DNA of 64,000 nucleotides from Dehalococcoidia bacterium (GTDB lineage Bacteria; Chloroflexota; Dehalococcoidia; Lucifugimonadales; Australimonadaceae). Numbering within the stretch: position 1 is the stretch's first letter; each line of letters starts with the position of its first letter. Shown here piece after piece: positions 1 through 41,602 of the stretch. The notes below the pieces were generated by a model. The model searched no databases, was not told the DNA's origin, and saw nothing but the letters and a program-made list of their open reading frames with translations. The DNA lies in the NCBI GenBank assembly GCA_965220205.1, contig OZ244812.1:2089678-2153677 (forward strand), written 5' to 3'. The position numbers and the translations under genes were made by a program.

Positions 1-410
1 CGAACGTGAAGAGCGCGTTCCTGTGCGCGAAGGCGGTCGTGCCCCTGATGCGGCAACAGGGGAAGGGCGTCATCATCAACACGGGCTCCTCCTCGGGCTT
101 CAACACGAGGCCGGACCGGACGGGCGACCTGTCGGCGTACGGCGCGGCAAAGGCGGCGTTGCACGCGCTCACCACACGCATGGCGCAGCAGTGGGGGCCC
201 GAGGTGCGGGTCGTGTGCATCGCGCCGGGGACGATAGACACGCCGCGTCCGGAGGGCACGGTGCGGCCCGAGATGGCGAACGCGGCCGACCGAATCCCGC
301 TGCGGCGGGTCGGGCAGGCCGACGACATCGGCGGCGTAGCGCTGTTCCTCGCGTCGGACGCCGCGTCGTTCGTCAACGGCATCACGCTCCTGGTGAACGG
401 CGGGGAGTAG
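1..410 (+). CDS. SDR-family oxidoreductase, C-terminal part (5' end outside window)
   Basis: ORF open to the window edge. YGAAKAAL (catalytic YxxxK), IAPGTIDTP and FLASDAASFVNG are typical short-chain dehydrogenase motifs. Confidence 0.8.
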   Translation, partial: NVKSAFLCAKAVVPLMRQQGKGVIINTGSSSGFNTRPDRTGDLSAYGAAKAALHALTTRMAQQWGPEVRVVCIAPGTIDTPRPEGTVRPEMANAADRIPLRRVGQADDIGGVALFLASDAASFVNGITLLVNGGE

Positions 411-417
411 GCCGGGC

Positions 418-1293
418 ATGGAGGGAGCGCGTCAAGGGCCTCCCGCCTCGGCCGCGCGCCGGCCGGGCCCCGGGTCGCGCCCGCGCAGCTTCAAGACCGA
501 GTGCGTCGTCCTGCGCAGCCGCGACATGCGCGAGGCCGACCGGCTCGTGACGCTCCTGACGCCGTCCATGGGCAAGCTCACCGTCACCGTACGGGGCGCG
601 CGAAAGACCGCCAGCCGGCTGGGAGGGCACCTCGACGTCCTGAACCGCGCCAACCTCACGCTTGCGCTCGGGCACCGCATCGATGTCGTGACGGGGGCCG
701 AATCGCTCGAAACGTTCGGCGGCGTCAAGGCGGACCTGGAGCGTCTCGCGCTGGGCCTCTACTTCATGGAGTTGGGGGACGCGCTGCTGCCCTTGGAGTC
801 GCCGCACCCCGCCGCCTACGCGGTGCTGCTCGGCGCGCTTCGCGCGCTCGAGGGCGGCGTGGCGTCCGAGGCAGTCCCGCGCTACGTCGAGCTGCGGCTG
901 CTTGACGACGCCGGCTACCTGCCCGAGCTGCGGCGCTGCCTCGAGTGCGGCAAGGCGGTCGAGCCGGGGGGCCACCGCTTCGCGCCAGGACTCGGGGGGG
1001 TCGTGTGCGACACATGCGTCGTCCACACCGGCCCGGTGATGCCGCTCTCGGTCTCGGCGCTCAAGGTGCTCAGGCACTACGCCGGGCATGGGTTCGAGGA
1101 CGCGGTCCGCGTCAGGCTCGATGGGGCGCTGGCGTACGAGCTCGAATCGGTGCTCGGCGCGGCGCTGCAACACGTGCTGGAGCGCGAGATGGAGACGGCC
1201 GGTTTCGTGGAGCACCTGCGGCGCCTGCGCCGCCGGGAGCGTACGGCAGGCCCGCTTGCATCGGTCCCGCCGTCAGTCCAGGAGGACGCATGA
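418..1293 (+). CDS. recO: DNA repair protein RecO
   Basis: N-terminal OB-fold signature ECVVLRSRDMREADRLVTLLTPSMGKL and a CLECG...CDTC zinc motif. Start codon uncertain. Confidence 0.8.
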   Translation: MEGARQGPPASAARRPGPGSRPRSFKTECVVLRSRDMREADRLVTLLTPSMGKLTVTVRGARKTASRLGGHLDVLNRANLTLALGHRIDVVTGAESLETFGGVKADLERLALGLYFMELGDALLPLESPHPAAYAVLLGALRALEGGVASEAVPRYVELRLLDDAGYLPELRRCLECGKAVEPGGHRFAPGLGGVVCDTCVVHTGPVMPLSVSALKVLRHYAGHGFEDAVRVRLDGALAYELESVLGAALQHVLEREMETAGFVEHLRRLRRRERTAGPLASVPPSVQEDA

Positions 1294-1311
1294 TGGGCAG
1301 CCGACCGCCGC

Positions 1312-1734
1312 TCACGTGATGACGATCGGCTCTTCGGCGACCTGGCCGTCAACGATGCGGAACACGCGCGTCGCGGGCTCGCCGCGCACGAGCGCGCCGG
1401 CCTGGTCGAACTCGCGCAACGAGACGAGCAGGTAGTGCGGATCGGGCCAGTTCTCAGCAAGCCGCACATCGGTGTTGGATGGGTAGGCTGGGCTGTGCGT
1501 GTGCGAGTGATAGATCACCTGCATCTCCCATCCGTTGTCGTCTATCTCTCGGGTAGCAAGAAGGAGCTCCTTGCCGTCCATGTTGTAGCGGTAGGGGCTG
1601 CTCTCTGTGTTCGTCATCCGGTAGTGCTTGAGGACTTGACCGTCCTTGCCCGCTAGGAGGCCGCAACATTCGTTGGGGTCCTCCTCGATCGCGTGCTGGA
1701 CCATCGCATCGGCGAACTCTCTCGGAATCTCCAC
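1312..1734 (-). CDS. JAMM/MPN+ family metalloprotease (Mov34)
   Basis: EECCGLL plus HSHTHSPAYPSNTD (HxHx7Sx2D JAMM motif), 140 aa. Confidence 0.85.
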   Translation of the reverse strand: MEIPREFADAMVQHAIEEDPNECCGLLAGKDGQVLKHYRMTNTESSPYRYNMDGKELLLATREIDDNGWEMQVIYHSHTHSPAYPSNTDVRLAENWPDPHYLLVSLREFDQAGALVRGEPATRVFRIVDGQVAEEPIVIT

Positions 1735-1860
1735 GGCGTCTCCTGAGGCGCGAAGCTGGGATGCGAGTATAGCCGGTCGCCGGCCCAGCTCAGAAGGAGG
1801 GCGGAGCGAGCGCGGGAGCCCGGCCCGCTATAATCCGGCTCGCGGCAGAGGAGGACTCCC

Positions 1861-2133
1861 ATGGAGTACGGCATCACGGTGAAGCAGGACACGGGCGGCA
1901 CGCGGGTCGAGCTGCGGTCGCGCAATCAGGCGGGCGTCCTCTATGCCGTGCCGTCGGAGGGGAGCTGGGTGGCGACGGCCGACCAGCTGCACGCGCACGC
2001 GATCGCGGGGTTCTTCAGCGAACTGACCGGCCTGGGGGACGCGCGAGTGATGGGCCTGATGCAGAAGTGGGGGCTCTACTTCCGTCCGCTGGCGCTCGAA
2101 GACGGCGCGGAGGAAGAGTCGACCAACGCGTAG
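1861..2133 (+). CDS. hypothetical protein (90 aa)
   Basis: ATG preceded by GAGGAGGA. Non-repetitive composition; no recognisable motif. Confidence 0.45.
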   Translation: MEYGITVKQDTGGTRVELRSRNQAGVLYAVPSEGSWVATADQLHAHAIAGFFSELTGLGDARVMGLMQKWGLYFRPLALEDGAEEESTNA

Positions 2134-2155
2134 GAGGGCGCAGCGCCGCGAGCCG

Positions 2156-4039
2156 TTACGCGGACTGGGGGACGACGGCGTCGTCGAGGGGAGGTGCGGC
2201 CGACTCGAACAGCTTGGCGAGGTCTTCGCCCTCGACGGTCTCGTTGAGCATCAGGTAGCGCGCGATCTGGACCAGCTTGTCGTAGTGCTCGACGATGACG
2301 TGCTTACAGTGTGAGTAGGCCTCGAGGATGATGTTCTGCACCTCGTCGTCGATCTCCTGGGCCACCTTCTCGCTGTAGTCGCGCTGCTCGGCGATCTCCC
2401 GGCCTAGGAAGATCATGTCCTCCCGCTTGCCGAACGTCCGTGGGAGCAGCTTGTCGCTCATGCCGTAGCGGGTGACCATAGCGCGCGCCAAGCCGGTGAC
2501 CTGCTCGAGGTCGTTGCTGGCGCCCGTCGTGACCTCGCCGAAGGTGACTTCCTCAGCGACCCGACCGCCTAGGGCCATCGCAATCCGGTCCATCAGTTGA
2601 GGCCGCGAGTAGAACATGCGGTCCTCTTCGGGGAGGGACTTGGTGTAGCCGGCGGCCATGCCACGGGAGACGATCGAGATCTTCGCGACAGGGTCGGCGT
2701 GCTCGAGGATGTGTCCTACGAGCGCGTGGCCGCCCTCGTGGTAGGCGACGATCTCCTTCTCGTGCTGACTGATGACGCGCGAGCGGCGTTCGGGGCCCAT
2801 CGTCACGCGGTCGACCGACTCGTGCAGCTCGGCGGTCGTGACCTCGGTCTTTCCGCGCCGGGCCGCGAGGATGGCGGCCTCGTTGACGAGGTTCGAGAGG
2901 TCCGCGCCGCTGAACCCTGGCGTCTGACGGGCGATGTACTCGAGCTTGACGTCGTCGGAGAGCGGCTTGCCCTTGCTGTGCACCTCGAGGATCGCGACAC
3001 GACCGTTGATGTCGGGCAGGTCGAGCATGACCCGCCGGTCGAAGCGGCCGGGCCTCAGCAGGGCGGGGTCGAGGATGTCGGGCCGATTCGTGGCGGCGAT
3101 GACGATCACGTTGGTCGATGTATCGAACCCGTCCATCTCCACCAGGATCTGGTTCAGCGTCTGCTCCCGCTCGTCGTGACCTCCGCCCAAGCCGGCGCCA
3201 CGGTGCCGCCCGACCGCGTCGATCTCGTCGACGAACACGATGGCCGGGGAGTTGCGTTTCGCCTGGTCGAACAGGTCGCGGACGCGCGAGGCTCCGACGC
3301 CGACGAACATCTCGACGAACTCGGAGCCGCTGATGGAGAAGAACGGCACGCCTGCTTCGCCGGCGACGGCGCGGCTCAGCAGCGTCTTGCCGGTGCCTGG
3401 CGGGCCGACCATCAACACGCCCTTGGGGATGTGCGCGCCCAGGGAAAGGAACCGCTCGGGGTACTTGAGGAACTCGACGACCTCTTGCAGTTCCGTCTTC
3501 GATTCCTCGACGCCGGCCACATCGGAGAAGGTGACGGTGGGCCGGTTGCCTGAGAACATGCGCGCGCGGCTGCGGCCAAACCCCAGGGTCTGATTGTTGC
3601 TGCCCTGCGCCTGCCGCATCATAAACAGCAGAATCGCTCCGAAGAAGAGCAGCGGCAGGAACTGGATAAGGACGCCGAAGATGGACCCGAAGCTGCCCGA
3701 GCGCTTCACTTCGATCTGGATGCTCTTCTCCGTCGGGTTGATGTTGGCGGTCTGGAGGATCTCGAACACGCTCGTGCCCGGCTCCTTTTCGGTCATGAGC
3801 AATTGGTTCGGGGTCTGGCGCGGCGTCACGATCAGCCGGTCGCCGTCGACGACGATCTTCTCAATCTCCTCGTTGTTTGCCATGTCGAGGATGGTGGTGA
3901 GGCCAATGCGCTCGGCGCTGTTTCCGGACGAGAACAGCGTGAAGAAAATGGCTATGACAGCCACGAAGATAATCAGGTAGATGAACGCGTTACCGACCCA
4001 TCGTTTGCCCATGGCTCTATTCCCTGGCGCCCGCGCCAA
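2156..4039 (-). CDS. ftsH: ATP-dependent zinc metalloprotease FtsH
   Basis: N-terminal TM helices, Walker A GPPGTGKT, Walker B IVFVDEID, zinc site HEGGHAL, 627 aa. Confidence 0.97.
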
Positions 4040-4236
4040 CGGGGGAACGTCGCCGATAAGCTTACCCTACCCTGCGTGTGGGAAGCAAAGCGGGCCCCAC
4101 GGGCGGCGTCATCGTGCTCACGGCAATCGTCTTGCTCCTCTCCGTGCAAGGGTATACGGTCTGGCTGAGCGCTGGCGCGCCCAGCGCTGACGATGATGAC
4201 CGCCGTCCGAACAGTCAACGGCGAGGAGGCCGCGCG

Positions 4237-5193
4237 ATGCCCGAGGGGATCATTGGCGTGACGGCGATGAGCGGGGACGCCGCCGGGGCGCTCGCTACGA
4301 TTCAGGACCTCGACCGGCGGGGAGTCCCCGCCGCGTGGCTGACCAGCGGGGGCGGGGGCGGCGATAGCCTCACGCTGTTCGCGGCTGCCGCGGCCACTAC
4401 CGAACGGGTCCTGCTCGGCAGTTGCATCGTGACCACATGGCCGCGTCATCCGGTCATCGTGGCCCAGCAGGCGCAAGTCATCGCCAACCTATCGGGCGGA
4501 CGGTTCCGGTTGGGCGTCGGTCCCGGTCACGCACAGGGGATGAGCAACACGTACGGGGCGGACTACCGCACGCCCCTGACGAACCTGCGCGAGTACATCA
4601 CCATCGCCAAAACGCTGCTGACTACAGGCGCGGTGGAGTTCGAGGGGTCGATGTACAGGGCGAACGCCAAGATTGCCGCGCCGTCGCAGGGCGTGCCCGT
4701 GATGGCTTCGGCGTTGCGGCCGCGCTCGTTCGAGCTGTGCGGGGAAGTGGCCGACGGCGCCATCAGTTGGGTGTGCCCCGGCGTGTATCTGCGGGACACC
4801 GCCCTCCCGGCGATGCAGCGCGGCGCGGCAAAGGCAGGCCGTCCGGCGCCGCCGTTGATCGCCCACACCCCTGTGTGCGTCCACGAAGACGGGGAAGAGG
4901 TCCTCGCCGCCGTACGGGAGCAGCTCTCGAACTACCCGCGTTCGCCGTTCTATCAGCTCATGTTCGCCGAGTCCGGTTTCCCGGAGGCGGCCGAGCTCGG
5001 GACGTGGAGCGCGGAGATGCTCGACGCCGTGGCGATCTGGGGCAACGAGGAGCAGGTGGCCGCGCGCATCGCGGAGCGGTTCGACTGGGGCATGGGGGAG
5101 CTGATCGCGCACGTCGTCGCGGCCGGGAGCGACCGGGACGGCTCGCGGGAGCGGTCGCTGCGACTGCTGGCGTCGCTCGCCGCTGCGCGTTGA
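4237..5193 (+). CDS. LLM-class (luciferase-like) F420-dependent oxidoreductase
   Basis: Luciferase-like monooxygenase fold sequence (FRLGVGPGH..., ANLSGGR). Start moved to the ATG at 4237 behind GAGGAGG; the upstream part of ORF 4078.. looks non-coding. Confidence 0.75.
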   Translation: MPEGIIGVTAMSGDAAGALATIQDLDRRGVPAAWLTSGGGGGDSLTLFAAAAATTERVLLGSCIVTTWPRHPVIVAQQAQVIANLSGGRFRLGVGPGHAQGMSNTYGADYRTPLTNLREYITIAKTLLTTGAVEFEGSMYRANAKIAAPSQGVPVMASALRPRSFELCGEVADGAISWVCPGVYLRDTALPAMQRGAAKAGRPAPPLIAHTPVCVHEDGEEVLAAVREQLSNYPRSPFYQLMFAESGFPEAAELGTWSAEMLDAVAIWGNEEQVAARIAERFDWGMGELIAHVVAAGSDRDGSRERSLRLLASLAAAR

Positions 5194-5268
5194 ATCCGGC
5201 CTCGCTCACACATATCATCGGTTAGCTGCGGGCGGCTACTCTCAGGCCCGCGGCACGAGGAGGAAACC

Positions 5269-5514
5269 ATGGCTACCACGCGAGCGTTCGTCTTGATGGA
5301 GACGGCGGTCGGCAAGACAAAGGACGTTGTAGAGGAACTGCGCAGCGTCGAGGCGGTGGCGTCGGTCGATGTGGTCACCGGGCCCTACGACATCATCGCG
5401 ATCATTGAAGCTCCCGACCTGAGCTCTGTCGGCGAGACGGTCACGGGCAGCGTTCACACGATAAGCGGCATCGTGCGGACGGTCACCTGCCTGGCGGTGG
5501 GCGGCAAAGCCTAG
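5269..5514 (+). CDS. Lrp/AsnC ligand-binding-domain protein (stand-alone RAM domain)
   Basis: 81 aa; AFVLMETAVGK...VDVVTGPYDIIAIIEA pattern of the AsnC-type domain. RBS GAGGAGGA. Confidence 0.7.
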   Translation: MATTRAFVLMETAVGKTKDVVEELRSVEAVASVDVVTGPYDIIAIIEAPDLSSVGETVTGSVHTISGIVRTVTCLAVGGKA

Positions 5515-5559
5515 GGCCGCGCGGCGGGAACCGTCTCCGGCCCAACACGAGGACACACG

Positions 5560-5907
5560 GTGAGCGACCAGGACTGCGTTTTCTGCAAGATAGGCCGTGG
5601 CGAGATACCGTCCGAGAAGCTGTTCGACGACGGCGTCGTGTTCGCGATTCGCGACATCAAACCCAAGGCCCCGGTCCACCTGCTGGTTATTCCGTACGCG
5701 CACGTCGAAGCGCTGACCGCCGCAAGCGAGGAGCAGATCGAGGCGGCGAGCCACTGCCTCTCCGTCGCGCCGGCGGTGGCAAGCAGCGCCGGCGGGCGCC
5801 TCGAGGGATATCGTCTGGTCGTGAATCAGGGCCCGCACTCGGGACAAGAGGTCCCGCACTTCCACTTGCACATCCTCGGCGGCCGGCCGATGGGGAGTAT
5901 GGCGTAG
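5560..5907 (+). CDS. HIT-family (histidine triad) protein
   Basis: CVFCKI... and HFHLHILGG triad motif. Confidence 0.9.
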   Translation: MSDQDCVFCKIGRGEIPSEKLFDDGVVFAIRDIKPKAPVHLLVIPYAHVEALTAASEEQIEAASHCLSVAPAVASSAGGRLEGYRLVVNQGPHSGQEVPHFHLHILGGRPMGSMA

Positions 5908-5914
5908 GCCGCCG

Positions 5915-6499
5915 GTGACGACACTGGCGCTCCCTTCGATGCTGCAAGCCCGGTTGGACGGACTGCCGGCAGGGCTCCAAGCGCACATCGAACGCGTGCG
6001 GGGCATCGCGCGGGAGCTTGCGGCGGCGCACGGCGTCGACCAGGACCTCGCCGAGCTGACGGCGGCAGCCCACGATGTGGCGCGTCACCTGCCCGGCGCA
6101 GCGCTCATCGAGGAGGCGGAACGGCTGGGCATCGCGGCCAACGCGGTGGAGCGCAGCGCGCCGATTCTGCTGCACGGGCCCGTGGGCGCTGCCTGGCTCG
6201 CCCGAGAGCGGTCGATCACCGATCCCGGCGTGCTCGAAGGCGTGCGATGGCACACCACCGCCCACCCCAGCCTCGCGCCATTGGGGCAGGTCGTGTTCAT
6301 CGCGGACAAGCTCGACCCCGCCAAGGCGAAGAGCTACCCATTCCAGGGGGAGGTGCGGGAGGCGTCGTGGCGCAGCCTGCACGACGGCATGCTGGCCTTT
6401 CTCGACGGCACGCTGCGGGCGCACCTCGACCGCGGCGGCTTGGTCCACCCCCTATGCACGGATACGCGCAACGCGCTCCTGCTGGGCGCCGCCTGCTGA
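5915..6499 (+). CDS. HD-domain phosphohydrolase, YqeK-like
   Basis: AAHDVARH (HD), WHTTAHP and IADKLDP motifs, 194 aa. Confidence 0.7.
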   Translation: MTTLALPSMLQARLDGLPAGLQAHIERVRGIARELAAAHGVDQDLAELTAAAHDVARHLPGAALIEEAERLGIAANAVERSAPILLHGPVGAAWLARERSITDPGVLEGVRWHTTAHPSLAPLGQVVFIADKLDPAKAKSYPFQGEVREASWRSLHDGMLAFLDGTLRAHLDRGGLVHPLCTDTRNALLLGAAC

Positions 6500-6511
6500 G
6501 ACAGCAGGAAA

Positions 6512-6592
6512 TCAGCACAAATGTTCGTGAGACGGGCTTGACAGTGTAGAACGCGCGTTCTAGTATGCCCGCAACACGAACATTTGTGCTGA
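6512..6592 (+). promoter_or_regulatory. sigma-70-type promoter with embedded GAAC-N4-GTTC (LexA/SOS-type) operator, bracketed by an 18-bp perfect inverted repeat
   Basis: TTGACA 6538-6543, 17-bp spacer, TAGTAT 6561-6566. Palindrome TAGAACGCGCGTTCTA 6547-6562. Inverted-repeat arms TCAGCACAAATGTTCGTG 6512-6529 and CACGAACATTTGTGCTGA 6575-6592. Confidence 0.7.
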
Positions 6593-6596
6593 TGCA

Positions 6597-7964
6597 ATGC
6601 ATAACCTCACGGCATACCAATCGGAGATCGCTCGCGCTGTCGTAGACAGCGTGCTGCACGAACGCGGACTGACCTTCACGGTCGAGATCGCCCGTGGCGG
6701 CGGCGTCCGGGAGTTGTCGTCGCAGCTCGCGCTCCTGTTGCTCAGTCTCCACGTCAACGATGGGGTGCGTCTCCTCAAGATCGGTCCCGCCGCCCGCCCG
6801 CTCAACAAGGAGCGTCTCGTCTCCCATCTGTCGAAGGGGGCGCTCTCCGGACTCTGGTCCGTGGCGGGCCGCAGCGTTACGCTGGGCCGTTCGACGCTCC
6901 AGACTCTCACGACGGACGAGCTGGGCCCCACCGTCGTTGAGCACAGCGCCAGCGCGGCAGTGCTCATCGAAGTCGTCGACGCCGAACTTATCGGGCCCGC
7001 AGTCTATGATCGCTGGATCGACCCGGTTATCGAGGCCTCGGGCGCGACGACGGTCCTCTACGGCAGGCCGCTCAACGGCGAGACCCGGTTCGAATGCCTC
7101 AAGCAGCGCAACCGCGAGCAGGAGGCGGCCGACCACGTCCGGCGTCACTTCCGCGCGCCATGGCAGGACGTTGCGGACGCGTTGCCGGCGTACGCGGCGA
7201 AGGTCGACGACGCTCGCGCCCGCCTCGGCGAAGAGCACCCCGAGTTCCAGGCGGCCTACTGCCTCAGGCCCGCGTCCGCGTGGGGCCCTCTGCTGAGCGA
7301 GGCGCAGCGCAGGCGCCTCCAGGACGGGCCGCCGCGAGCAAACGTCCCAGGCGGCGGCGAGCATGTGGCGTCGGTCGTCGTGACGCGCGCAGCGGACGCC
7401 GGCGCAACCGAGGCGCCCGCTCTGCTCGCGAGCCCCGGCGCGACGGCGGTGGTCACGGTCGCGCGCCGCCGCGAACGCGACGCGGGTCTCGACGTCGTCG
7501 CGCACCGCTGGGCGCAGGGGGTGGACGCCCCGGCCCTGGCCAAGCGGGTGGGCAAGCTCCTCTCCGACACGTGGCGCTGCAACCGCGTTGTGGTTCTGGA
7601 CCGGGCGGGGGCGGGCGCCGGGGCTACGCGCCGCCGCCATCTGCTGCAGTCCGCCCTTGGCCGAATCCCCATGCAGTGGGCGGCGGACGACGACAGGACG
7701 GAGTCCCGCATGGCCTCCGACCTGCTCGCCGCGGTCAATACCCGCCGCCTCAGCCTCTATCCGGCCGACTGTTCGCCCGAGTCCCGGGCCATCGGCCACG
7801 AGCTCCGCACAGCCGTTGCGGTCCGCGCCGGCGATGGCCGCACGCACGTCGTCGTCCCGTCGGGGGACGAAGGGTTCCTCCGTGGCGTCCTGCTCCTTTC
7901 GGGCTTTGCAGGCCCGGCCGGACAGGCAACCGCGGACGAGCCGGAGACAGCACTCGCGTCGTAG
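6597..7964 (+). CDS. hypothetical protein, terminase-large-subunit-like architecture (by-eye similarity only)
   Basis: 455 aa. N-terminal LTAYQSEIARAV..., degenerate P-loop position ARGGGVRE, Walker-B-like VLIEVVDAE, C-terminal RVVVLDRAGAGAG and VVPSGDEGFLRGVLLL resembling the TerL nuclease-domain layout. Sits directly behind the SOS-type promoter. Confidence 0.55.
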   Translation: MHNLTAYQSEIARAVVDSVLHERGLTFTVEIARGGGVRELSSQLALLLLSLHVNDGVRLLKIGPAARPLNKERLVSHLSKGALSGLWSVAGRSVTLGRSTLQTLTTDELGPTVVEHSASAAVLIEVVDAELIGPAVYDRWIDPVIEASGATTVLYGRPLNGETRFECLKQRNREQEAADHVRRHFRAPWQDVADALPAYAAKVDDARARLGEEHPEFQAAYCLRPASAWGPLLSEAQRRRLQDGPPRANVPGGGEHVASVVVTRAADAGATEAPALLASPGATAVVTVARRRERDAGLDVVAHRWAQGVDAPALAKRVGKLLSDTWRCNRVVVLDRAGAGAGATRRRHLLQSALGRIPMQWAADDDRTESRMASDLLAAVNTRRLSLYPADCSPESRAIGHELRTAVAVRAGDGRTHVVVPSGDEGFLRGVLLLSGFAGPAGQATADEPETALAS

Positions 7965-8066
7965 TTCGCAAGGGTTACGTTCGAGTCGGAAGTCGAAAAC
8001 GACAGGTTAGATGTTGAGATGAATGGATTGCCGACCACTAAGAGAGACAAGAGGAGGGAGACTGCT

Positions 8067-8381
8067 ATGGCCAACGACACCAGGTCCCACCGGCGCCGTC
8101 GCCAACCCACGTTGGACGGCTTACCCGAGCAGACGCACTATGCAGACACCGGCTGCGAGGTGGCTATCTCCTGCTTGGGCTGCCCGCTTCCGCAGTGCAA
8201 GTTCGACGACATCGCCTGGTACCGCGACTACATGATGCGGAACCGGGACGAGCTGATGCTGGCGGAGTATCACGAGCAGAGGCTGAGCGTCTTCACCGTC
8301 GCGCAGCGCTTCAACGTGAGCCCGCGCACGGTGCATCGCGCACTCCGCCGGGCTCAGACGCCCGTGGCGGTCGCCGGGTAG
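8067..8381 (+). CDS. Cys-cluster plus helix-turn-helix DNA-binding protein
   Basis: RBS GGAGGGAG before the ATG at 8067. CEVAISCLGCPLPQC cysteine cluster, then TVAQRFNVSPRTVHRALRRA HTH. Confidence 0.6.
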   Translation: MANDTRSHRRRRQPTLDGLPEQTHYADTGCEVAISCLGCPLPQCKFDDIAWYRDYMMRNRDELMLAEYHEQRLSVFTVAQRFNVSPRTVHRALRRAQTPVAVAG

Positions 8382-8429
8382 GCCTCTTCAGCGCCAGCCC
8401 GCGAGTGCTCGTTTCCCCGACTTCGAGAG

Positions 8430-8466
8430 GGCCGCCCTGCCGCCCGTGGCAGGGCGGCCTCTTTGT
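8430..8466 (+). terminator. intrinsic terminator
   Basis: GGCCGCCCTGCC (8430-8441), loop GCCCGT, GGCAGGGCGGCC (8448-8459), followed by TCTTTGT. Confidence 0.7.
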
Positions 8467-8494
8467 GCGAGCTTGGCCGCGAGGAGAGCTGGTC

Positions 8495-8571
8495 TGGTCG
8501 GGGTGATTGGATTCGAACCAACGGCCCCTTGCACCCCATGCAAGTGCGCTTCCGGACTGCGCCACACCCCG
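8495..8571 (-). tRNA. tRNA-Pro (anticodon GGG), CCA encoded
   Basis: Reverse complement reads CGGGGTGTGGCGCAGTCCGGAAGCGCACTTGCATGGGGTGCAAGGGGCCGTTGGTTCGAATCCAATCACCCCGACCA. Acceptor CGGGGTG/CACCCCG, T-arm GGTTCGAATCC, anticodon loop AUGGGGU. Confidence 0.92.
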
Positions 8572-8727
8572 ACCGGGAGTCCACTGTAGCATAGGCTCCC
8601 AGGCCCGTTCAATTTTGGCGACGAGTCCGGCGGAGGGGGCCGCCGCCTGATAGGGACGGCTCGCGATGGTATGATGACGAAGGACGGTCGGACGCCGTTC
8701 ACCCCACCTCAGCAGCGGGAGACACGC

Positions 8728-9832
8728 GTGGAAGAGCTCCGAGAACGCCTCAGGACCCTGATCGAACGCCTCGACGGGATTGCGGTGCGTCTTTGACCTC
8801 GTCGGCAAGGACGCGGAGATCTCTCGCCTCGAAACCGTAGCCGGCGAACCTGGCTTCTGGAACGACCCCGAACACGCCCAATCGTCCATGCGGTCGCTCG
8901 CCCGGCTCAGGGAGACGGTGCGGACGTGGCGCGAGCTTCGGGAACGTCTCGCCACGAACCTCGAGCTGATGGACCTTGCCGCCGAGTCGTCGGACCAAGC
9001 GATGCTCGACGAGCTGGCCGTCGAGGCCCAGGACCTCAGCGCGCAGGCCGAGGACCTCGAGTTCGAGCTCACGCTCTCGGGGGAGTACGACGACCGCTCG
9101 GCGATTCTGACGGTCCACGCGGGGGCGGGCGGCACCGATGCGCAGGACTGGGCCGAGATGCTGCTGCGCATGTACACGCGCTGGGCCGAGACGAGGCGCT
9201 ACCAGGCCCGCATCCTCGACCTCTCGCCGGGGGAGGAGGCGGGGGTCAAGAGCGCGACGCTGGAGCTGGCCGGCCCGCACGCCTACGGCTATACGCGGTC
9301 CGAGCGGGGGGTGCACCGGCTGGTGCGCCTGTCGCCCTACGACGCAGCGCACGCGCGCCACACGTCGTTCGCGCTCGTCGAGGTGCTTCCGGAGGCCGAG
9401 GGCGACGTCGATGTCCAGATCGACATGGACGACGTCCACGTCGAGACGTTCAAGGCCAGCGGCGCGGGCGGCCAGCACGTCCAGAAGAACTCGACCGCCG
9501 TGCGTATGACCCACCAGCCGAGCGGGCTGGTCGTGTCGTGTCAGAATGAGCGCTCCCAGCTGCAGAACAAGGAGGCCGCGCTCAAGATACTGCGGTCCCG
9601 GCTGATGCAGATCGAGATCCAGCGCCGCGCCGAGGAGCGGGCCAGGATCAGGGGCGACCACGTTACGGCCGAATGGGGCAACCAGATACGCAGCTACGTG
9701 CTGCACCCCTACAAGATGGTCAAGGACCACCGCAGCGGCTACGAGTCGACGAACCCGGACCTGATCCTCGACGGGGAGCTCGACCCGCTCATGCGCGCCT
9801 ATCTGCTGTCAGGGGTCGGCGCGGCGGAGTAG
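8728..9832 (+). CDS. prfB: peptide chain release factor 2, with programmed +1 frameshift (join 8728..8793, 8795..9832)
   Basis: Frame-0 GTG at 8728 (RBS GGGAG) runs to CTT TGA C at 8791-8797. The +1 frame continues DLVGKDAEISRLE...; SPYD and GGQ motifs present. Confidence 0.93.
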
Positions 9833-9877
9833 CGGGAGCCCTTCCGTCCCGTAGAGAGGCGCGAGGGGAAGGCGTTC

Positions 9878-10621
9878 CTACTGCGCTTCGCCCTCTTCCA
9901 AGGCCGCCTCGCTCTCCCAGTCGACCGCCGGTTTGCCCAGCGATTCCAGGATGGCGTTCACGAAGATCTCGTCTGGGACGGCGCCAACGAACTCGGCGCG
10001 GTCGTTGATGACCGTCTTGGGGACGCCCATCACCTGGTACTCGCGGGCGAGCTCCGGGAACTCCTGACACTCGACGACGTCGGCCTTGATGTGGGGGTTG
10101 GCGAGGGCGAGGGCGTGGGCCGCACGGGCCACACGAGGGCAGTGCGGTCAGGTAGGTGTGACGAACACGCGCAGGTGCACTTCCTCGTCGATGAGGTCGC
10201 GCGCGGCTGCCGCCACCGGCCCCCGCAGCATCGGAGCCTCCTGCGAGACCGACTCGATGTCCGCCAGGACGGTGGGGAACTCGTTGCCGAGGGGCGCGCC
10301 GTAGAAGCGGACGCGGCCTTCGCCGTCGTTTCCGAGGACGACGGCCGGCAGCTGCTCGATCTCCAGGCGCTTGGCCTCGCTCGCGCCGTCGCCGTACGCG
10401 TCGTAGACCTCCAGCGTCAGCTTCGGCGAGATGCTGGTCAGCTCTTGGAGCAGGTCCTGCGTGACCTTCATCAACTCGCCGCCGCCCGATTGCTGACCGG
10501 GCAACACGAGCAGGCTCCGCGCCACGGACTGCGTGAAGAGCCGTACGGTCACGTCGCGGTCGAGAGAGCTCTCGAACCGGGCCGCGAGCATCGCCCGGTC
10601 TTGGTCGCTAAGCATTGCCAT
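9878..10621 (-). CDS. glutaredoxin-like protein disulfide oxidoreductase (two thioredoxin folds) with in-frame TGA at the CxxC position; candidate selenoprotein (UPHC)
   Basis: ORFs 10148..10645 and 9878..10132 share one frame. Read-through gives RVFVTPT-[TGA 10150..10148]-PHCPRVARAAHALALANPHIKADVVECQEFPELAREYQVMGVPKTVIND. Start ATG at 10621 behind GAGGAGGGG. Confidence 0.65.
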
Positions 10622-10790
10622 GTCCCCTCCTCGGGTCCGGACCATTCATTCCGTCATAGCTGTTCAGACTTGGGGAGAGGAACACCCCACCCCCTGTGGA
10701 TACCCGCTTTCGCGGGTATGACGGTGGCTGTCATGCGGTTTCGATCATTGCGTTGCGACGACATAGTACACGCCCCGCGCCGGGACTGCG

Positions 10791-11384
10791 CTAGGCGTCG
10801 TGCGTTCTGCGCCAGACGTAGACCATGCGCTGGGCAACGGTGAGTCCGCCCAACGCGACAATGACGCCGAGCGCGTAGAGCGGGACGCCCGCCAACAGCC
10901 CGACGCCGAGCACGACGATGCGCTCGGGGCGCCCCAGGAAGCCGACGTCGCCCTCGACGCCGAGGCCCTCGGCCCGGGCCCGGGAGTAGCTGACCATCAG
11001 CGACATCGCAAGGGCGCCAAAGCTGAGGTACGCGCCCAACTCGTGTCCGTCGCGGACGAAGAACACGAGGAGGCCGAAGAGCGCGGCGGCCTCGCCGAGC
11101 CGGTCGATGACGGAGTCGAGGAACGCGCCGAACCGGGATGCGGTGTTGGTGAGCCGGGCGACGGCGCCGTCGAGCATGTCCATGGACGCGCCGCCGAGCA
11201 GCACGGCGCCGCCGGCTAGGAGGTTGCCCTCGGCGATGAGGTACGCGGAGAGCCCCGAGACGCCGAGGCCCGCGACGGTGACGGCGTTGGCGGATACATG
11301 GAGCGCGATGAGGACGCGGGCTATGGGCTCGCTGCCATAGCGGACCGCCCATCGCTTGGCGCGGAGGCGCGGCGCGCTCAGCAT
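10791..11384 (-). CDS. CDP-alcohol phosphatidyltransferase (probable phosphatidylinositol-phosphate synthase)
   Basis: DMLDGAVARLTNTASRFGAFLDSVIDRLGE matches DGx2ARx8Gx3Dx3D. Multiple TM helices. Sits in an operon with ino1. Confidence 0.85.
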   Translation of the reverse strand: MLSAPRLRAKRWAVRYGSEPIARVLIALHVSANAVTVAGLGVSGLSAYLIAEGNLLAGGAVLLGGASMDMLDGAVARLTNTASRFGAFLDSVIDRLGEAAALFGLLVFFVRDGHELGAYLSFGALAMSLMVSYSRARAEGLGVEGDVGFLGRPERIVVLGVGLLAGVPLYALGVIVALGGLTVAQRMVYVWRRTHDA

Positions 11385-11407
11385 CGCTCCAGCCCTGCGT
11401 GGGAGGC

Positions 11408-12598
11408 TCACGAGGCGGCCTTGGTTTCGCGGCGGCGGCGCAGCAGCGTCTCGTAGTAGTCGAGCACGCGCTCCGCAACGGTCTCCCACCGGTACTGCTC
11501 GACCGTCACGCGGCCGCGAGCGCCCATCTCCCGCCGCAACTGCTTGTCGTCGAGCAGGCGCCGGATGGCGGCTGCGAGCTCCGCTTCGTTCTTGGGAGGC
11601 ACGAGGAAGCCCTCGACGCCGTTCGAGATCACGCTGCTGAAGCCGTCGATGCGCGTCGCCACGATCGGTTTGCCGGCGGCCATGGCCTCGGTCAGGATGA
11701 GCCCGAAACTCTCCCGGCCCGTGTTCGGCGCGCAGAAGATGTCGGCGGCCTGGTAGTAGCGGGGCTTCTCCTCCTCAGGCACGGGCCCGACGAACTCCAC
11801 GTCCTGCAGGTTGCGCTCGCTGACGAGGCCGAGCACGTCCTCGCCGGGGTTGCCGCCGCCGACGATGATGAGGCGGGTGTCAGGGTAGTCCCACTTGAGC
11901 CGTCCGTAGGCCATCACCAGGTACTTCAGGCCTTTCCGCCGCTCCAATCTGCTCAGAAACAGCAGGTTGGTCTTGCCGTCGTTGTACTGCGCAAGCGGCT
12001 CGAGCGGCGTGGCGAAGCGGTCGACGTCTACGCCGTTCGGGATCACTTCGTACTTGCCGGGGTAGAACTTGCTCACGAAGTCCCGGGCGGGACCGGACAC
12101 GGCGATGCGCCCGTCGAGCCTGCGGAACCACCTGCGCGACATGTAGCGCCAGATGCGGTAGAAGCGGGTGCCCCGGAACGTGTGGAACGTGCCGACGTTC
12201 ACCGCCCGCGAGGAATGGAGGACCGTCAGGGGCAGGGCCGGCGCCATCGGTTCGTGGAGGTGAACGATGTCGAACTTCTCCTCCTCGAGGAGCTGCTTGA
12301 CACGGGGCTCGAGCCATACGGAGAAGGTGACGCGCGCCACGGCGCCGCCGCTCGGGATGGGGACGGGCCGTCCCATGGGGATGAAGTCCGGTTCGGGCGG
12401 GCGGTCCCTCGAGTTCGCCAGGGGCGCAATGATCTTGACTGTATGTCCCCGGCCCCGGAGCTGGCGGGCCAGGCTCGTGATGTGGTCGTTGACGCCCCCG
12501 GGCGACCCGTAGTCATAGGGCGAGACCAGAGCGACCTTCAATGGGCCCTGGCCACGCCGGGGCTCCCCCGAGAGCAACACGTCCGCCGAATCGGTCAC
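11408..12598 (-). CDS. GT4-family glycosyltransferase (PimA-like)
   Basis: 396 aa. [14 protein letters not shown] at the N-terminus and [16 protein letters not shown] (EX7E) at the C-terminus. Confidence 0.85.
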
Positions 12599-36520: not shown

Positions 36521-37565
36521 GTAGATGTTAGGTAATTCGTTGACAGATTTGGCTGGAGAACGAGCCAGTCTGGAGGCGAAGATGCGCGACAACAGCACCG
36601 ACCGCACCATCGAGCGGAACTATGTTCAGAAGTGGCGGTTCCTCATCCGGGAGTACGAACAGGTCAAGGCCAAGAGCCACCCCAAGTTCCGCTTCGTCCA
36701 GGACTTCTACGCCTTCCATGGGACCAACCGCCAGACCTTCGCCAAGTACTACAACCGCTATCGGCAGTCCGGCAACGGCGACGCCCTGCTGCCTGGCAAG
36801 CGGGGACCCCGTTGGAAGAGCCGCCGCACCCTCCCCTTCATCGAGGAGAAGGTGCTCGAGCTCCGGCGCAAGGGCATCAACCGCTACGAGATCTATGCCA
36901 TACTCAGGCCGGTGCTGAAGTCCCACACGCCAGCGCCCTCGACCATCTACGCCATCGCCCAGCGCCACGGCCTGAACCGGTTGACCAAGCCCATGCGGGA
37001 GTCCAAGCGCCAGATCATCAAGACCCGTGCCGGGGAGCTGGGCCACCTGGACTGCCACCACCTGAGCAAGGACCTGCTCGTGGGCGCCAGGCGGCGCTCC
37101 TACCTGGTGTGCGTGATCGACGCCTGCACCCGTCTGGCCTGGGCGGAGGTGGTGGACGACCTGAAGAGCCTGAGCGTCATGTTCGCGGCGCTGAAGAGCA
37201 TCAACCTGCTGAACGCCGAGTATGGAGTCCGGTTCGAGGCCATTCTCACGGACAACGGGGCCGAGGTGGCTTCGCCGGCCAACAAGGCCAACCACCCGAT
37301 GGAGCGGATGTTCCAGGAGCTGGGCATCACGCACCGCTACACGCGGCCCTACCGGCCGCAGACCAACGGGAAGGTCGAGCGGTTCTGGCGGACGCTGAAC
37401 GAGGACCTGCTGGACGAGACGACGTTCGAGTCGGTGGAGGAGCTGAAGGAGGAGTTGATGCAGTACCTCGTCTACTACAACACCGCACGGCCCCACCAGG
37501 GCCTCGGGGGAAAGACCCCCCTCCAAACCCTGCAAAATCTGTCAACGAATTAGCTGACACATACA
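36521..37565 (+). mobile_element. IS481-family insertion sequence (1045 bp)
   Basis: About 33-bp imperfect terminal inverted repeats sharing TAATTCGTTGACAGATTT. 6-bp direct repeat ATTCAT at 36515-36520 and 37566-37571. Confidence 0.88.
36525..37553 (+). CDS. IS481-family transposase (DDE/rve integrase core)
   Basis: HLDCHHL..., VIDACTRLAW, TDNGAE and YRPQTNGKVERFWRTL motifs, 342 aa. Confidence 0.92.
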   Translation: MLGNSLTDLAGERASLEAKMRDNSTDRTIERNYVQKWRFLIREYEQVKAKSHPKFRFVQDFYAFHGTNRQTFAKYYNRYRQSGNGDALLPGKRGPRWKSRRTLPFIEEKVLELRRKGINRYEIYAILRPVLKSHTPAPSTIYAIAQRHGLNRLTKPMRESKRQIIKTRAGELGHLDCHHLSKDLLVGARRRSYLVCVIDACTRLAWAEVVDDLKSLSVMFAALKSINLLNAEYGVRFEAILTDNGAEVASPANKANHPMERMFQELGITHRYTRPYRPQTNGKVERFWRTLNEDLLDETTFESVEELKEELMQYLVYYNTARPHQGLGGKTPLQTLQNLSTN

Positions 37566-38654: not shown

Positions 38655-40103
38655 ATGCGAGGCCTTGGAGAATGTCAGATAACTGTCAGTGATAGTCGTG
38701 ATTATGCCAGAGCGCAACAGAGGAGGGTCACGCCATTGCCGGACGGCGATCGAGGGAGCGAGGGGCCGGACGCCTCAGTCCTGCTTCAGTACGAGAACGA
38801 CCCGCGGGGCTTTGTCGCGCAAGTGCTGGGCGGGACGGGCGAGCCGTACGCCAAGCAGGAGGAAATGCTCGACGCGGTTGCGACGCGCCGCAGGGTGACG
38901 GTGGTGGGCTGCAACGGCTCGGGGAAGGACTGGGCGGCGGCCCGCATTGTGCTCTGGTGGGTCGCGACGCGCCCGCGCGCGAAAACGATCGTCACGGGAC
39001 CGACGCAGCGTCAGGTGGAGGAGGTGGTGTGGCGGGAGATGCGCATCGCCTACGCGACGGCGGCCGGGGCGCTTCCGGGACAGATGCACGCGTCGCGCTA
39101 CGTGATCGACGATCAACGCTTCGCGCTCGGCTTCGCGACGGACCACCCGTACAACCTGCAGGGGTTCCACTCGCCGAGCCTGATGGTCGTGGTCACGGAA
39201 GCGCATGCGGTTGCTCAGGAGCATATGAACGCGCTCAAGCGCCTCAACCCGAAGCTGGTGTTGCTGACGGGCAACCCGCTGACCGTGAGCGGAGAGTTCT
39301 ATGACTCGCACCACGGCAACAGCACGCTCTACGCCCAGATCGGGATCAGCGCGTTCGATACGCCGAACGTAGCGTCGGGCAGAAACGACGCCGTCCCGGG
39401 GATGCTCACGATGGAGGACGTCGAGGAGCGCCGCGTCGAGTGGGGCGAAGACCACCCGATGTACGTCGCGTCGATACTGGGGCAGTTCCCCGAGTCGCTG
39501 GAAGACACGTTGGTCTCGCGGACGCAACTGAGCGACGCGGTGGAGCGGTGGCGCCTGACGGCGCCGGAATCGGGCAAGGAATGGGTGATGGGGGTGGACG
39601 TCGCCCGTTTCGGCGCGGACAAGTCGGTCCTGTGCCTGCGGCGCGGCGGACGGGTGGAGGAGATCGTGAGCCGTCGCGGGCTCAGCACGATGCAGCTGGC
39701 CGGACTCATCGTCGACCGACTGAAGCGCCACGACATCAGGGCGGTGTTCGTCGACGCGGCGGGCGTGGGCGGGGGCGTGGTCGACCGGCTGAAGGAGAAC
39801 AACCATCCGGTGATCGAGGTGCAGGTAGGGGCGTCGTCGAGCAACTCGGAGCGGTACGCGAACCTGCGCGCCGAGCTGTTCTGGGAGCTGCGCCGGCGGT
39901 TCAGGGAAGGCGCGATCGCGATTCCCGACGATCCGGAGCTGGCAGGCCAGCTGCTGGCGATTCGATACGAGTACACGTCGAGCGGACAGGTCCAGCTCGA
40001 GAGCAAGAAGAAGATGAAGGCCCAGGGCGGCGCGTCGCCCGACAAGGCGGACGCGCTGGCGCTCGCGTTCATGGGAACGCCGTCGCTGGACGTTTGGATA
40101 TAG
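38655..40103 (+). CDS. phage terminase large subunit
   Basis: Walker A VVGCNGSGKD, Walker B LMVVVTEAH, nuclease-domain motifs MGVDVARFGADKSV, VFVDAAGVGGGVVDRL and SPDKADALALAF. The upstream part of ORF 38292.. is repeat DNA. Confidence 0.88.
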   Translation: MRGLGECQITVSDSRDYARAQQRRVTPLPDGDRGSEGPDASVLLQYENDPRGFVAQVLGGTGEPYAKQEEMLDAVATRRRVTVVGCNGSGKDWAAARIVLWWVATRPRAKTIVTGPTQRQVEEVVWREMRIAYATAAGALPGQMHASRYVIDDQRFALGFATDHPYNLQGFHSPSLMVVVTEAHAVAQEHMNALKRLNPKLVLLTGNPLTVSGEFYDSHHGNSTLYAQIGISAFDTPNVASGRNDAVPGMLTMEDVEERRVEWGEDHPMYVASILGQFPESLEDTLVSRTQLSDAVERWRLTAPESGKEWVMGVDVARFGADKSVLCLRRGGRVEEIVSRRGLSTMQLAGLIVDRLKRHDIRAVFVDAAGVGGGVVDRLKENNHPVIEVQVGASSSNSERYANLRAELFWELRRRFREGAIAIPDDPELAGQLLAIRYEYTSSGQVQLESKKKMKAQGGASPDKADALALAFMGTPSLDVWI

Positions 40104-40331: not shown

Positions 40332-41513
40332 ATGCTGAAGTCGATGCGGAGACTGTTCGAGACGCCGGCGCCGACGGAACGCGCGAACGCGCCGCTGGCG
40401 GTGGGCATGCGACTGTTGCAGCCCGACCGCGGCGTTGGCGGCGAGTGGCAGTCGCCGGTGTACGGCGAGTACTACGCCCGCAGCGCCGACGTGTACGCGG
40501 CGGTGAAGCTGCGGGGCGAGGCGGTGGCGCGGCCCCCGCTGGTCGTGCGGACGCGGGACGCGTCGGGAGTCTCGCGCGCCGCGCCGCCAAGCCACCCGGT
40601 GCAACATCTCCTCGATTCGGTCAACCCGTTCTGGAGCAAGTCGGGGTTGCTCATCGCGACGGAGACGTACCTGTGCCTATGGGGCTCGGCGTTCTGGTTC
40701 CTCGGCCATTCGGAGCGGGCCGGGAGCGTTCCGGACGAGATATGGCCGCTCCGGCCGGACCGCGTGCGGGTGGTGCGCGACGCGAGGCGGTACATATCGG
40801 GGTTCGTGTACACGGAGGCGGGCCAGGACCTGCCGATGCTGCCCGAGGAGGTGGTCTGGTTCCGCTACTTCAACCCGTTGGAGGAGTTCTCGGGCCTCTC
40901 GCCGATGGCGGCGGCGCGGCTGACGGCCGATATGGGCATGGACGCGCTCCGCTTCAATCGCGAGTTCTTCCGGAACGGGGCCCAGCCGCAGGACCTCGTC
41001 TTCCGGGCGCGAGGGCCGGTGACCGACGACCAGGTGGCGGACTTCTACGCGCGGTTGGAGCAGCGGTTCACGGGTCCATCGCGGGCGCACCGGCCCATCG
41101 TCACGGGCGACGGGTGGGAGGTGCAGCGACTCGGCGTCAACCAGCGGGACATGGAATGGCTGGCGGGCCTGCGGTGGAGCTTGGAGGGCGTGGCGCGGGT
41201 GTTCGGCGTGCCGCTGCCGCTACTCGAGGACTTCTCGCACGCGACGCTGAACAACGTGCGCGAGGCGCGTCGGATGTTCTGGGAGAAGACGATGGTCCCG
41301 GAGACGGTGTTCCTGACCGACGCGATCAACCAGGGGTTGCTGCCGCGCCTGGGCCCACAGGCGCAGGGCGCGGAGGTCGCGTTCGACCTGAGCGTCGTCG
41401 AAGCGCTCGGCGAGACGGAGTCAGAGCGAACGCGGCGGCACGTGGCGCTGGTCAACGCGGGGATCATGACGGTCGACGAGGCGCGCGCCGAGCGGGGTCT
41501 TGGCGCGGGCTGA
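40332..41513 (+). CDS. phage portal protein (HK97-type)
   Basis: 393 aa, RBS AGGAGG. Position between terminase and protease, and portal-like sequence pattern (by eye). Confidence 0.8.
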   Translation: MLKSMRRLFETPAPTERANAPLAVGMRLLQPDRGVGGEWQSPVYGEYYARSADVYAAVKLRGEAVARPPLVVRTRDASGVSRAAPPSHPVQHLLDSVNPFWSKSGLLIATETYLCLWGSAFWFLGHSERAGSVPDEIWPLRPDRVRVVRDARRYISGFVYTEAGQDLPMLPEEVVWFRYFNPLEEFSGLSPMAAARLTADMGMDALRFNREFFRNGAQPQDLVFRARGPVTDDQVADFYARLEQRFTGPSRAHRPIVTGDGWEVQRLGVNQRDMEWLAGLRWSLEGVARVFGVPLPLLEDFSHATLNNVREARRMFWEKTMVPETVFLTDAINQGLLPRLGPQAQGAEVAFDLSVVEALGETESERTRRHVALVNAGIMTVDEARAERGLGAG

Positions 41514-41602
41514 GGGGTACAGACCGGGAAGATGTGATAGAACCTCAGTGCTGGAAGTCCCCGCAAGGGGACGGTCAAGCGCGACCCGCGAGGGGAGGAA
41601 TC

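Follow-up and report, generated by a model that had tools for sequence, protein, structure and literature searches.

Phage genes that bacteria have domesticated are usually known as working machines, among them gene transfer agents (GTAs), tailocins and encapsulins. The large terminase (TerL) of tailed phages is a packaging ATPase-nuclease, and the phage proteins closest by structure to the one described here are Sf6 gp2, HK97 TerL and the TerL of Thermus phage D6E; the closest phage sequences to its intact relatives are those of the Bacillus phages vB_BboS-125 and BCD7 and of BRock-type Streptomyces phages. LexA operators of the Cheo-box type (GAAC-N4-GTTC) occur in Firmicutes, Actinobacteria and Dehalococcoides. 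Here we describe a TerL homologue of 455 amino acids (aa) that is encoded at 6597..7964 (+ strand) in a stretch of 64,000 nucleotides (contig OZ244812.1, positions 2,089,678 to 2,153,677; hereafter the window) of a Dehalococcoidia bacterium of the family Australimonadaceae, the genome of which is a single contig of 2.93 Mb with a G+C content of 66.6%. Its gene is followed at 8067..8381 (+) by that of a 104-aa protein with a cysteine cluster and a helix-turn-helix (HTH), which we call Cys-HTH. Like phage TerL, the 455-aa protein has an N-terminal ASCE ATPase with a lid and a C-terminal RNase-H-like nuclease, with the motifs in the same order and register; judged from its residues, it is catalytically dead, and 'dead TerL' below stands for this predicted state. 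On balance we favour, with somewhat more than even confidence, the reading that the pair is a LexA-repressed two-gene operon and the core that survives from an ancient gene set of the Chloroflexota, derived from phage and controlled by the SOS response, with Cys-HTH as the effector and the dead TerL as its non-catalytic partner.

Three lines of evidence identify the 455-aa protein as a terminase: the alignment of its family, the predicted structure and the Terminase_6C matches of its relatives. Searched alone, the protein gave no match in Pfam, PHROGs, NCBIfam or PADLOC, and the profile of its family gave none among PDB sequences; sequence homology to TerL nevertheless emerged through the relatives and through profile comparison. 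A homology search returned 165 proteins with lengths of 440-500 aa; every one came from Chloroflexota, on contigs of up to 2.3 Mb. Pfam Terminase_6C is matched by 23 of 48 aligned family members (best E-value 5.9e-10), and the terminase of Bacillus phage vB_BboS-125 shares 32% identity with an intact member of the family. Comparison of the family profile by hhalign with the TerL of a phage head island elsewhere in the window (38655-40100) gave a probability of 94.7 and an E-value of 5.7e-8 over 355 columns at about 20% identity, with the motifs in register. The AlphaFold2 (AF2) model built from the family alignment has a predicted local distance difference test score (pLDDT) of 91.8 and a predicted template modelling score (pTM) of 0.87. 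When it was searched against the PDB with Foldseek, the top 23 matches were all TerL structures, including Sf6 gp2 (E-value 8.5e-15), HK97 TerL and D6E TerL, at TM-scores of 0.57-0.60; the predicted fold comprises both the ASCE ATPase and the RNase-H-like nuclease of a two-domain TerL. A preliminary description of this DNA had taken the open reading frame (ORF) for a TerL homologue on account of motifs that mirror those of the island TerL. The homology is borne out by fold and by profile, the libraries being silent on the protein alone and the structure prediction and family alignment speaking for it, and the resemblance to the island protein is real but remote. The proposal that the two are paralogues is not supported: they are only distant homologues from different lineages, with portal types PF05133 and PF04860, respectively.

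Alignment of 119 homologues showed a clean split, with all catalytic motifs kept in 71 listed sequences of the intact set (P0049-P0120) and all of them lost in the window protein and 47 others (P0001-P0047). The intact form has ARQGGKNELS at Walker A, LLEVDEAQ at Walker B and TVLYGTP as the coupling motif, followed by the nuclease acidic motifs VAGxDVAG, VVVDATGxG and GHDDFL. In the window protein the Walker A position reads ARGGGVRELS, Walker B has become LIEVVDAE with loss of the acidic pair, and the three nuclease motifs are replaced by VASVVVTR, VVVLDRAGAG and SGDEGFL. None of the features by which TerL membership was judged in this respect (Walker A lysine, Walker B pair, three nuclease acidic motifs) is therefore present, and the degenerate positions quoted in the preliminary description all align exactly with the catalytic motifs of the intact homologues. 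The Walker A lysine is changed to Val, Ala, Gly or Met in all 48 sequences of the dead clade. Still present in the window protein are the YQ motif upstream and the glycine-rich loop, and it may therefore have kept the ability to bind nucleotide. The general forms in this clade are ARGGGVRELS, LIEVxDAx, VASVVVTR, a degraded DATG and GDEGFL, and the clade conserves substitutes of its own (ARGGGVRELS, LIEVADAQ, VASVVVTR, GDEGFL and a C-terminal ALAS) across 40-94% identity. In a FastTree phylogeny of 122 sequences the dead group forms a single clade (support 100), and the branch that sets it apart, at 0.89 changes per site, is longer than any other internal branch; the distance from the shared node to the tips is 2.25 as compared with 0.31 for the intact sister group, about 7 times as long. 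This topology indicates that the ATPase and nuclease residues were lost in one ancestral episode.

The retention of the pair was followed in a census of the family of the source genome, covering 57 genomes from 18 genera. The dead TerL is present in 49 genomes and 14 genera, always as a single copy, and 46 of the frames are full length and free of stop codons. Cys-HTH is found in 53 genomes and 17 genera and lies directly downstream of the dead TerL wherever the latter is present. Identity within the family is 39-52% for TerL versus 48-71% for Cys-HTH. Truncated forms of TerL occur in G042 (residues 3-57) and in G090 and G595 (residues 6 to about 180), and the gene is absent from G545 and G573; where TerL is truncated or absent, the exact AGAAC-N4-GTTCT box is still located upstream of an intact Cys-HTH gene. 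Because these two persist under such conditions, operator and Cys-HTH constitute the invariant core, and the dead TerL is, as far as the distribution of the genes indicates, an accessory kept by most genera. In relatives with 41-51% identical TerL proteins the pair occupies the same locus between HIT-HD and prfB.

Ratios of nonsynonymous to synonymous substitution (dN/dS; Nei-Gojobori, two pairs per clade at most) agree with retention under selection. Between the window and locus L123, the proteins of which are 94% identical, the dead TerL has a dN of 0.029, a dS of 0.092 and a dN/dS of 0.31, compared with 0.22 for Cys-HTH and 0.04-0.18 for five flanking genes. Between G119 and G145 the value for the dead TerL is 0.21, with 0.10 for Cys-HTH, 0.21 for HD and 0.15 for HIT. 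A pair from the intact clade (L001 and L015) gave 0.14 for TerL. A dN/dS of 0.2-0.3 means that the amino-acid sequence of the dead TerL is under constraint, though a weaker one than that on the active TerL. The annotation of 6597..7964 as a large-terminase homologue predicted to be dead draws on AF2, Foldseek, the motif table, hhalign and dN/dS together.

The region upstream of the pair (6511..6593, +) contains an SOS-type promoter and operator made up of three boxes, a -35 and a -10 element. The promoter has the form TTGACA-17-TAGTAT, with the -35 element at 6538-6543 and the -10 element at 6561-6566, and an exact GAAC-N4-GTTC box, GAACGCGCGTTC (6549-6560), fills the spacer and abuts the -10. 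On the left is a one-mismatch box, GCACAAATGTTC (6515-6526; GCAC-N4-GTTC), at -82, and on the right another, GAACATTTGTGC (6578-6589; GAAC-N4-GTGC), at -19; both outer boxes lie within a 27-nt inverted repeat (6511-6537 / 6567-6593). The region has two promoter-like sites, against 0.1 expected in shuffled sequences. The three-box layout recurs at L123, L002 and L007, two boxes are present at L009, and the operator is also found at six further loci of the family; the TerL proteins of L002, L007 and L009 are 41-51% identical to that of the window, yet the operator layout is kept. In the source genome the same exact box precedes recA by 81 bp and lexA by 25 bp. The SOS control proposed in the preliminary description is thus matched by a LexA-type operator, as sequence, with one exact and two one-mismatch boxes. 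LexA would be expected to bind there, and the dead TerL and Cys-HTH genes are probably co-transcribed.

An additional exact box, CGAACGTATGTTCT, is located at C1:2783213, outside the window and 55 bp upstream of a 481-aa ORF. The N-terminus of this ORF reads, by eye alone, as a Y-family or ImuB-type polymerase (imuB/dinB-like), and the ORF probably belongs to an SOS mutagenesis cassette. The GTGC-type half-sites of the outer boxes were considered as candidate sites for Cys-HTH; genome-wide they are below chance expectation, and the search gave no further convincing sites.

Sequence alignment of Cys-HTH revealed invariant residues D27, G29, C30, C36, C39, C44 and D47. They belong to an N-terminal module D-x-G-C-x5-C-x2-C-x4-C-x2-D (CEVAISCLGCPLPQC) that is followed by a basic helix and a C-terminal HTH of the sigma-region-4, GerE or DeoR-N type. 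Profile matches are weak: phrog_836 is matched with an E-value of 3.8e-6 by the L001 orthologue and of 7e-4 by the window protein, DeoR and GerE are matched by the family profile with E-values of 0.003-0.004, and the only PADLOC match is to mad1 (E-value 0.0018, at the level of the HTH). The four-Cys module matched nothing in any library searched, and Foldseek and a PDB profile returned generic HTH proteins only and no small terminase. The invariant cysteines suggest that Cys-HTH binds a metal or a cluster. There is no sigma region 2, and Cys-HTH is therefore not a sigma factor on its own. Its gene likely starts at ATG 8067 behind the ribosome-binding site GGAGGGAG, which gives the 104 aa of the preliminary description; the longest ORF begins at an alternative upstream ATG (8019).

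In distant genomes the intact TerL is part of a conserved cassette of seven genes, the first four of which are small ORFs; TerL, Cys-HTH and an SPP1-type portal follow as genes 5-7. The small ORFs encode, in this order, a protein of about 107 aa with several hydrophobic stretches (judged from the translation alone), an acidic one of about 51 aa, a helical one of about 85 aa and one of about 72 aa with a hydrophobic C-terminal stretch. A sample of 401 Chloroflexota genomes from 218 genera showed the TerL family in 136 genomes and 89 genera. At L001 and L004 the gene order is AsnC-HIT-HD-[4 small ORFs]-TerL-HTH-portal, and in the window, L002 and L123 it is AsnC-HIT-HD-deadTerL-HTH-prfB; since the AsnC-HIT-HD neighbours are common to both, the window pair is orthologous by position to the cassette genes. 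The gene is a reduced form of this phylum-wide cassette, a relationship missed in the preliminary description, as was the fact that Cys-HTH, and not TerL, is the better conserved partner.

Genomes with an intact cassette also have one HK97-type capsid gene at a distance of 50-400 kb from the TerL-portal cassette. The sequence AGAAC-N4-GTTCTATT is found just upstream of both the cassette and the distant capsid gene, for example at the capsid loci L116 (6206), L118 (6193) and L117 (6169) of genomes G006, G065 and G045, respectively. Because capsid and cassette share this operator-promoter signature, the genes for the head seem to be organized as a dispersed regulon with LexA boxes. Among IMG/VR contigs there is a compact, phage-like form with TerL, portal, capsid and Cys-HTH accompanied by an integrase (L092). 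At L003 (9536-12963) TerL is separated from the Cys-HTH-portal pair by host genes that encode a proteasome subunit, a GTPase and an enoyl-CoA hydratase, which points to a cassette that has long been resident on the chromosome. At L122, from a complete 1.5-Mb genome of the same class (G171), TerL and the HTH-portal pair are divergent, each behind a one-mismatch box (11198 and 6637), and the portal match contains an in-frame TAG.

The remainder of the cassette is lost in the window's family. The cassette portal was detected in none of its 57 genomes and the cassette capsid in one (G573, which itself has no dead TerL), while the same portal and capsid queries found their targets in all five intact-cassette genomes used as controls. 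Anywhere in the source genome, neither the small ORFs nor the cassette portal or capsid were found. With portal, capsid and small ORFs lost and TerL predicted to be dead, members of this family should be unable to package DNA by this route.

These observations suggest the following scenario for the favoured reading, that of a LexA-repressed operon with Cys-HTH as effector. Portal, capsid and small ORFs disappeared from the window's family and its TerL lost the catalytic residues, yet a full-length, single-copy TerL gene was retained under purifying selection. Upon DNA damage, RecA-stimulated self-cleavage of LexA would open the triple operator, after which dead TerL and Cys-HTH would be produced together. 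Cys-HTH, as a metal- or cluster-binding protein of the late-activator or sigma-region-4 type, would be the effector and act as a second-tier regulator of SOS transcription, and the dead TerL would serve as its non-catalytic partner (scaffold, adaptor or modulator), probably through the strongly conserved N-terminal region and the lid and linker surfaces; the best candidate for a contact surface is formed by the N-terminal 60 residues. The regulatory role of Cys-HTH and any contact between the two proteins are what we infer from these features. Since selection still acts on the pair, all that is left of a phage-derived set, it seems that a viral enzyme was given a task that does not involve catalysis.

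Several results weigh against this reading. The dead clade evolves about 7 times faster than its intact sister group and its dN/dS is above that of most neighbouring genes. Within the family TerL was lost or truncated at least three times (G042; G090/G595; G545/G573), mostly in small genomes, and in G145 (L009 1474-3195) a frameshift near residue 406 runs the dead TerL into Cys-HTH to give a 574-aa frame; repeated loss and frameshift fit a dispensable, weakly constrained gene equally well as a partner protein. No structural match of Cys-HTH beyond a generic HTH was found with Foldseek or the PDB profile. Finally, the exact box occurs 32 times in the genome against about 28 expected, so without enrichment, for which reason LexA control is argued from the position in the promoter and from phylogenetic conservation. 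The fused frame of G145 was also considered as a 'Rosetta stone' for interaction of the two proteins and rejected, since the junction is a frameshifted Arg/Pro-rich 3' end and reflects damage or an assembly error.

A different outcome for the dead TerL would be that of a true pseudoenzyme with a new job, either as a co-regulator that senses nucleotides or DNA and gates a second-tier SOS transcription factor with a Cys cluster (redox or metal sensing) or as a dominant-negative poison subunit directed against related phages; we regard this as possible but put it forward tentatively. The anti-phage function on its own, in which dead TerL made when infection or prophage induction sets off the SOS response would, through retained surfaces, bind TerS, portal or neighbouring motor subunits of phages with this TerL lineage, enter or titrate the motor and jam packaging, with Cys-HTH regulating or recognizing pac-site DNA, seems unlikely to us. 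It is true that prophage-like contigs with an integrase (L092) carry the same TerL-portal-capsid-Cys-HTH lineage, so that related phages likely infect these hosts, that fold and interface regions are kept while catalysis is gone, and that both the fast evolution of the dead clade, which would suit an arms race, and the SOS-timed expression predicted from the operator are compatible with such a role. However, the dead TerL matches no PADLOC defence family, the locus is a fixed housekeeping site instead of a defence island, Cys-HTH is better conserved and more persistent than TerL, and dN/dS gives no sign of positive selection at the level of the gene. We likewise consider it rather improbable that only Cys-HTH and the SOS promoter are functional, with TerL as a slowly decaying passenger the frame of which is kept mainly to avoid polarity on the downstream gene. 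Decay of this kind would be in line with the truncation or deletion of TerL in several genera that have box and Cys-HTH intact, with the G145 frameshift, with the lower identity of TerL than of Cys-HTH and with the rate acceleration of the dead clade. It is disfavoured by the dN/dS of 0.2-0.3, which points to selection on the amino-acid sequence beyond maintenance of an open frame, by the conservation of the clade's own replacement motifs over the whole range of identity, by the survival of 46 of 49 TerL copies at full length in 14 genera, and by the very confident AF2 model, as expected of a folded and constrained protein.

The genomic surroundings bear on two further explanations. On the 3' side of the pair, beyond a terminator, lies a tRNA-Pro gene, which the preliminary description had taken for a possible integration site, with the pair as either a domesticated or exapted terminase or the last remnant of a prophage. 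That the pair is a recent prophage remnant awaiting deletion is hardly credible. The geometry, with the element on the 3' side of the tRNA gene, would be compatible, and the genes are of phage origin. But no att-like repeat of tRNA-Pro was found in window positions 1-12000 and no integrase near the pair; the tRNA gene adjoins the pair only in the window's family, and the ancestral cassette of distant genomes stands beside HIT-HD without a tRNA. Moreover, the G+C content around the pair equals that of the surroundings, with no island signature, 49 of 57 family genomes have the pair in this same place, and its genes are under purifying selection. The tRNA is thus a family-specific neighbour, and of the two proposals domestication or exaptation fits much better, given the single copy, the constant locus, the purifying selection and the conserved operator. 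A functional link of the pair, as accessory or regulator, to the tailless head island 30 kb away had been suggested as well and is very improbable. Island and pair are both present in the source genome, G119 and G145, both TerL genes are damaged in G145, and at the level of orders the island TerL and the cassette family rarely occur together except in the window's family. Within that family, however, they are uncoupled in both directions: G570, G576, G580, G584-G589 and G596 have the dead TerL without the island TerL (G589 being a single-contig genome), and G573 has the island without the dead TerL. The island encodes an intact TerL of its own, its portal is of the PF04860 type instead of PF05133, and no exact LexA-type box was found upstream of it.

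Some additional observations concern the island itself. A DDE transposase gene (PF01609; 42828-43829) and an rve-type integrase-core gene (36525-37553) lie inside or beside it, which shows that it is interrupted by insertion sequences. A GTGC-variant box like the outer ones of the dead-TerL promoter, AGAACCTCAGTGCT, is located at 41540-41551, shortly beyond the end of the island portal gene at 41513, and may be due to chance. In G145 the island TerL is split into three pieces, so that both terminase genes of this genome may be decaying, or the breaks are assembly errors. With 38655-40100 as query, two genera of the family (G547-G567 and G591-G594) were found to contain 5 to 29 copies per genome of island-type TerL, chiefly of the N-terminal ATPase half (residues ~40-300) and in frames of mostly 450-700 aa; here the gene behaves as a proliferating element rather than as a single inherited gene.

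The other features of the locus agree with the preliminary description, in which all ORFs and features were correctly placed and no further phage genes adjoined the pair; its observations are confirmed, and its interpretation is supported in part. According to Pfam and a tRNA scan, the order is a gene for an AsnC-type regulator, HIT (5560-5907), HD (5915-6499), the 455-aa ORF, the small ORF, a hairpin terminator, tRNA-Pro(GGG) and prfB (from 8780). The terminator is strong and G+C-rich (~8425-8462, +) and separates the Cys-HTH gene from tRNA-Pro (8495..8571, - strand), a convergent neighbour that lies outside the module.

No description of a pair of dead TerL and Cys-HTH was found in full-text literature searches. 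If the favoured reading is correct, retention under selection of a packaging ATPase-nuclease without catalysis, over the divergence of at least 14 genera, would represent a different outcome of domestication, in which a motor has turned into a pseudoenzyme; should the protein act as co-regulator or poison subunit, no non-catalytic exaptation of a viral packaging motor protein would have been described from bacteria before it. The locus is a small and unusually well-conserved putative SOS output in the SAR202-type Chloroflexota, which are abundant, uncultured ocean bacteria. It also provides a 'before and after' series for the dismantling of a domesticated element, from the intact cassette via dead TerL with Cys-HTH to Cys-HTH alone.

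Compared with known regulatory systems, the operator resembles Cheo-box operators in its core motif, in the overlap with the spacer between -35 and -10 and in its presence before recA and lexA of the same genome. Different from the usual Cheo box are the layout with three boxes and the conserved GTGC/GCAC half-site of the outer boxes. Cys-HTH is similar to phage late activators (PHROG 836 and 532, 'late transcriptional activator') in size and in having a three-helix C-terminal HTH after a basic helix; unlike these, and unlike sigma-70 region 4, GerE and DeoR-N proteins, it possesses an invariant four-Cys N-terminal module.

With respect to the terminase, intact family members correspond to phage TerL: they have both Walker motifs, the coupling motif and the three acidic motifs of the nuclease, and their genes adjoin a portal gene. 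In the window protein, by contrast, the Walker A lysine is missing, as are the acidic pair of Walker B and the three acidic positions of the nuclease; its genome encodes no portal, capsid or TerS to partner with it, and its gene is chromosomal, single-copy, vertically inherited and apparently under LexA control. Also close is the SOS-controlled, GTA-like dispersed set of the Dehalococcoidia and other Chloroflexota, to the TerL and Cys-HTH of which the window pair is orthologous by position and sequence and with which it has the type of operator in common; gene transfer agents of the RcGTA type are a more distant comparison. Unlike the GTA-like set, the window's family has no portal, capsid or four small ORFs and a TerL that is predicted to be dead, so the source genome does not contain the complete combination of active TerL, portal and capsid that characterizes a GTA-like system. 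The window pair is a vestige of such a set with a presumably changed role, and not a member of a particle-making system.

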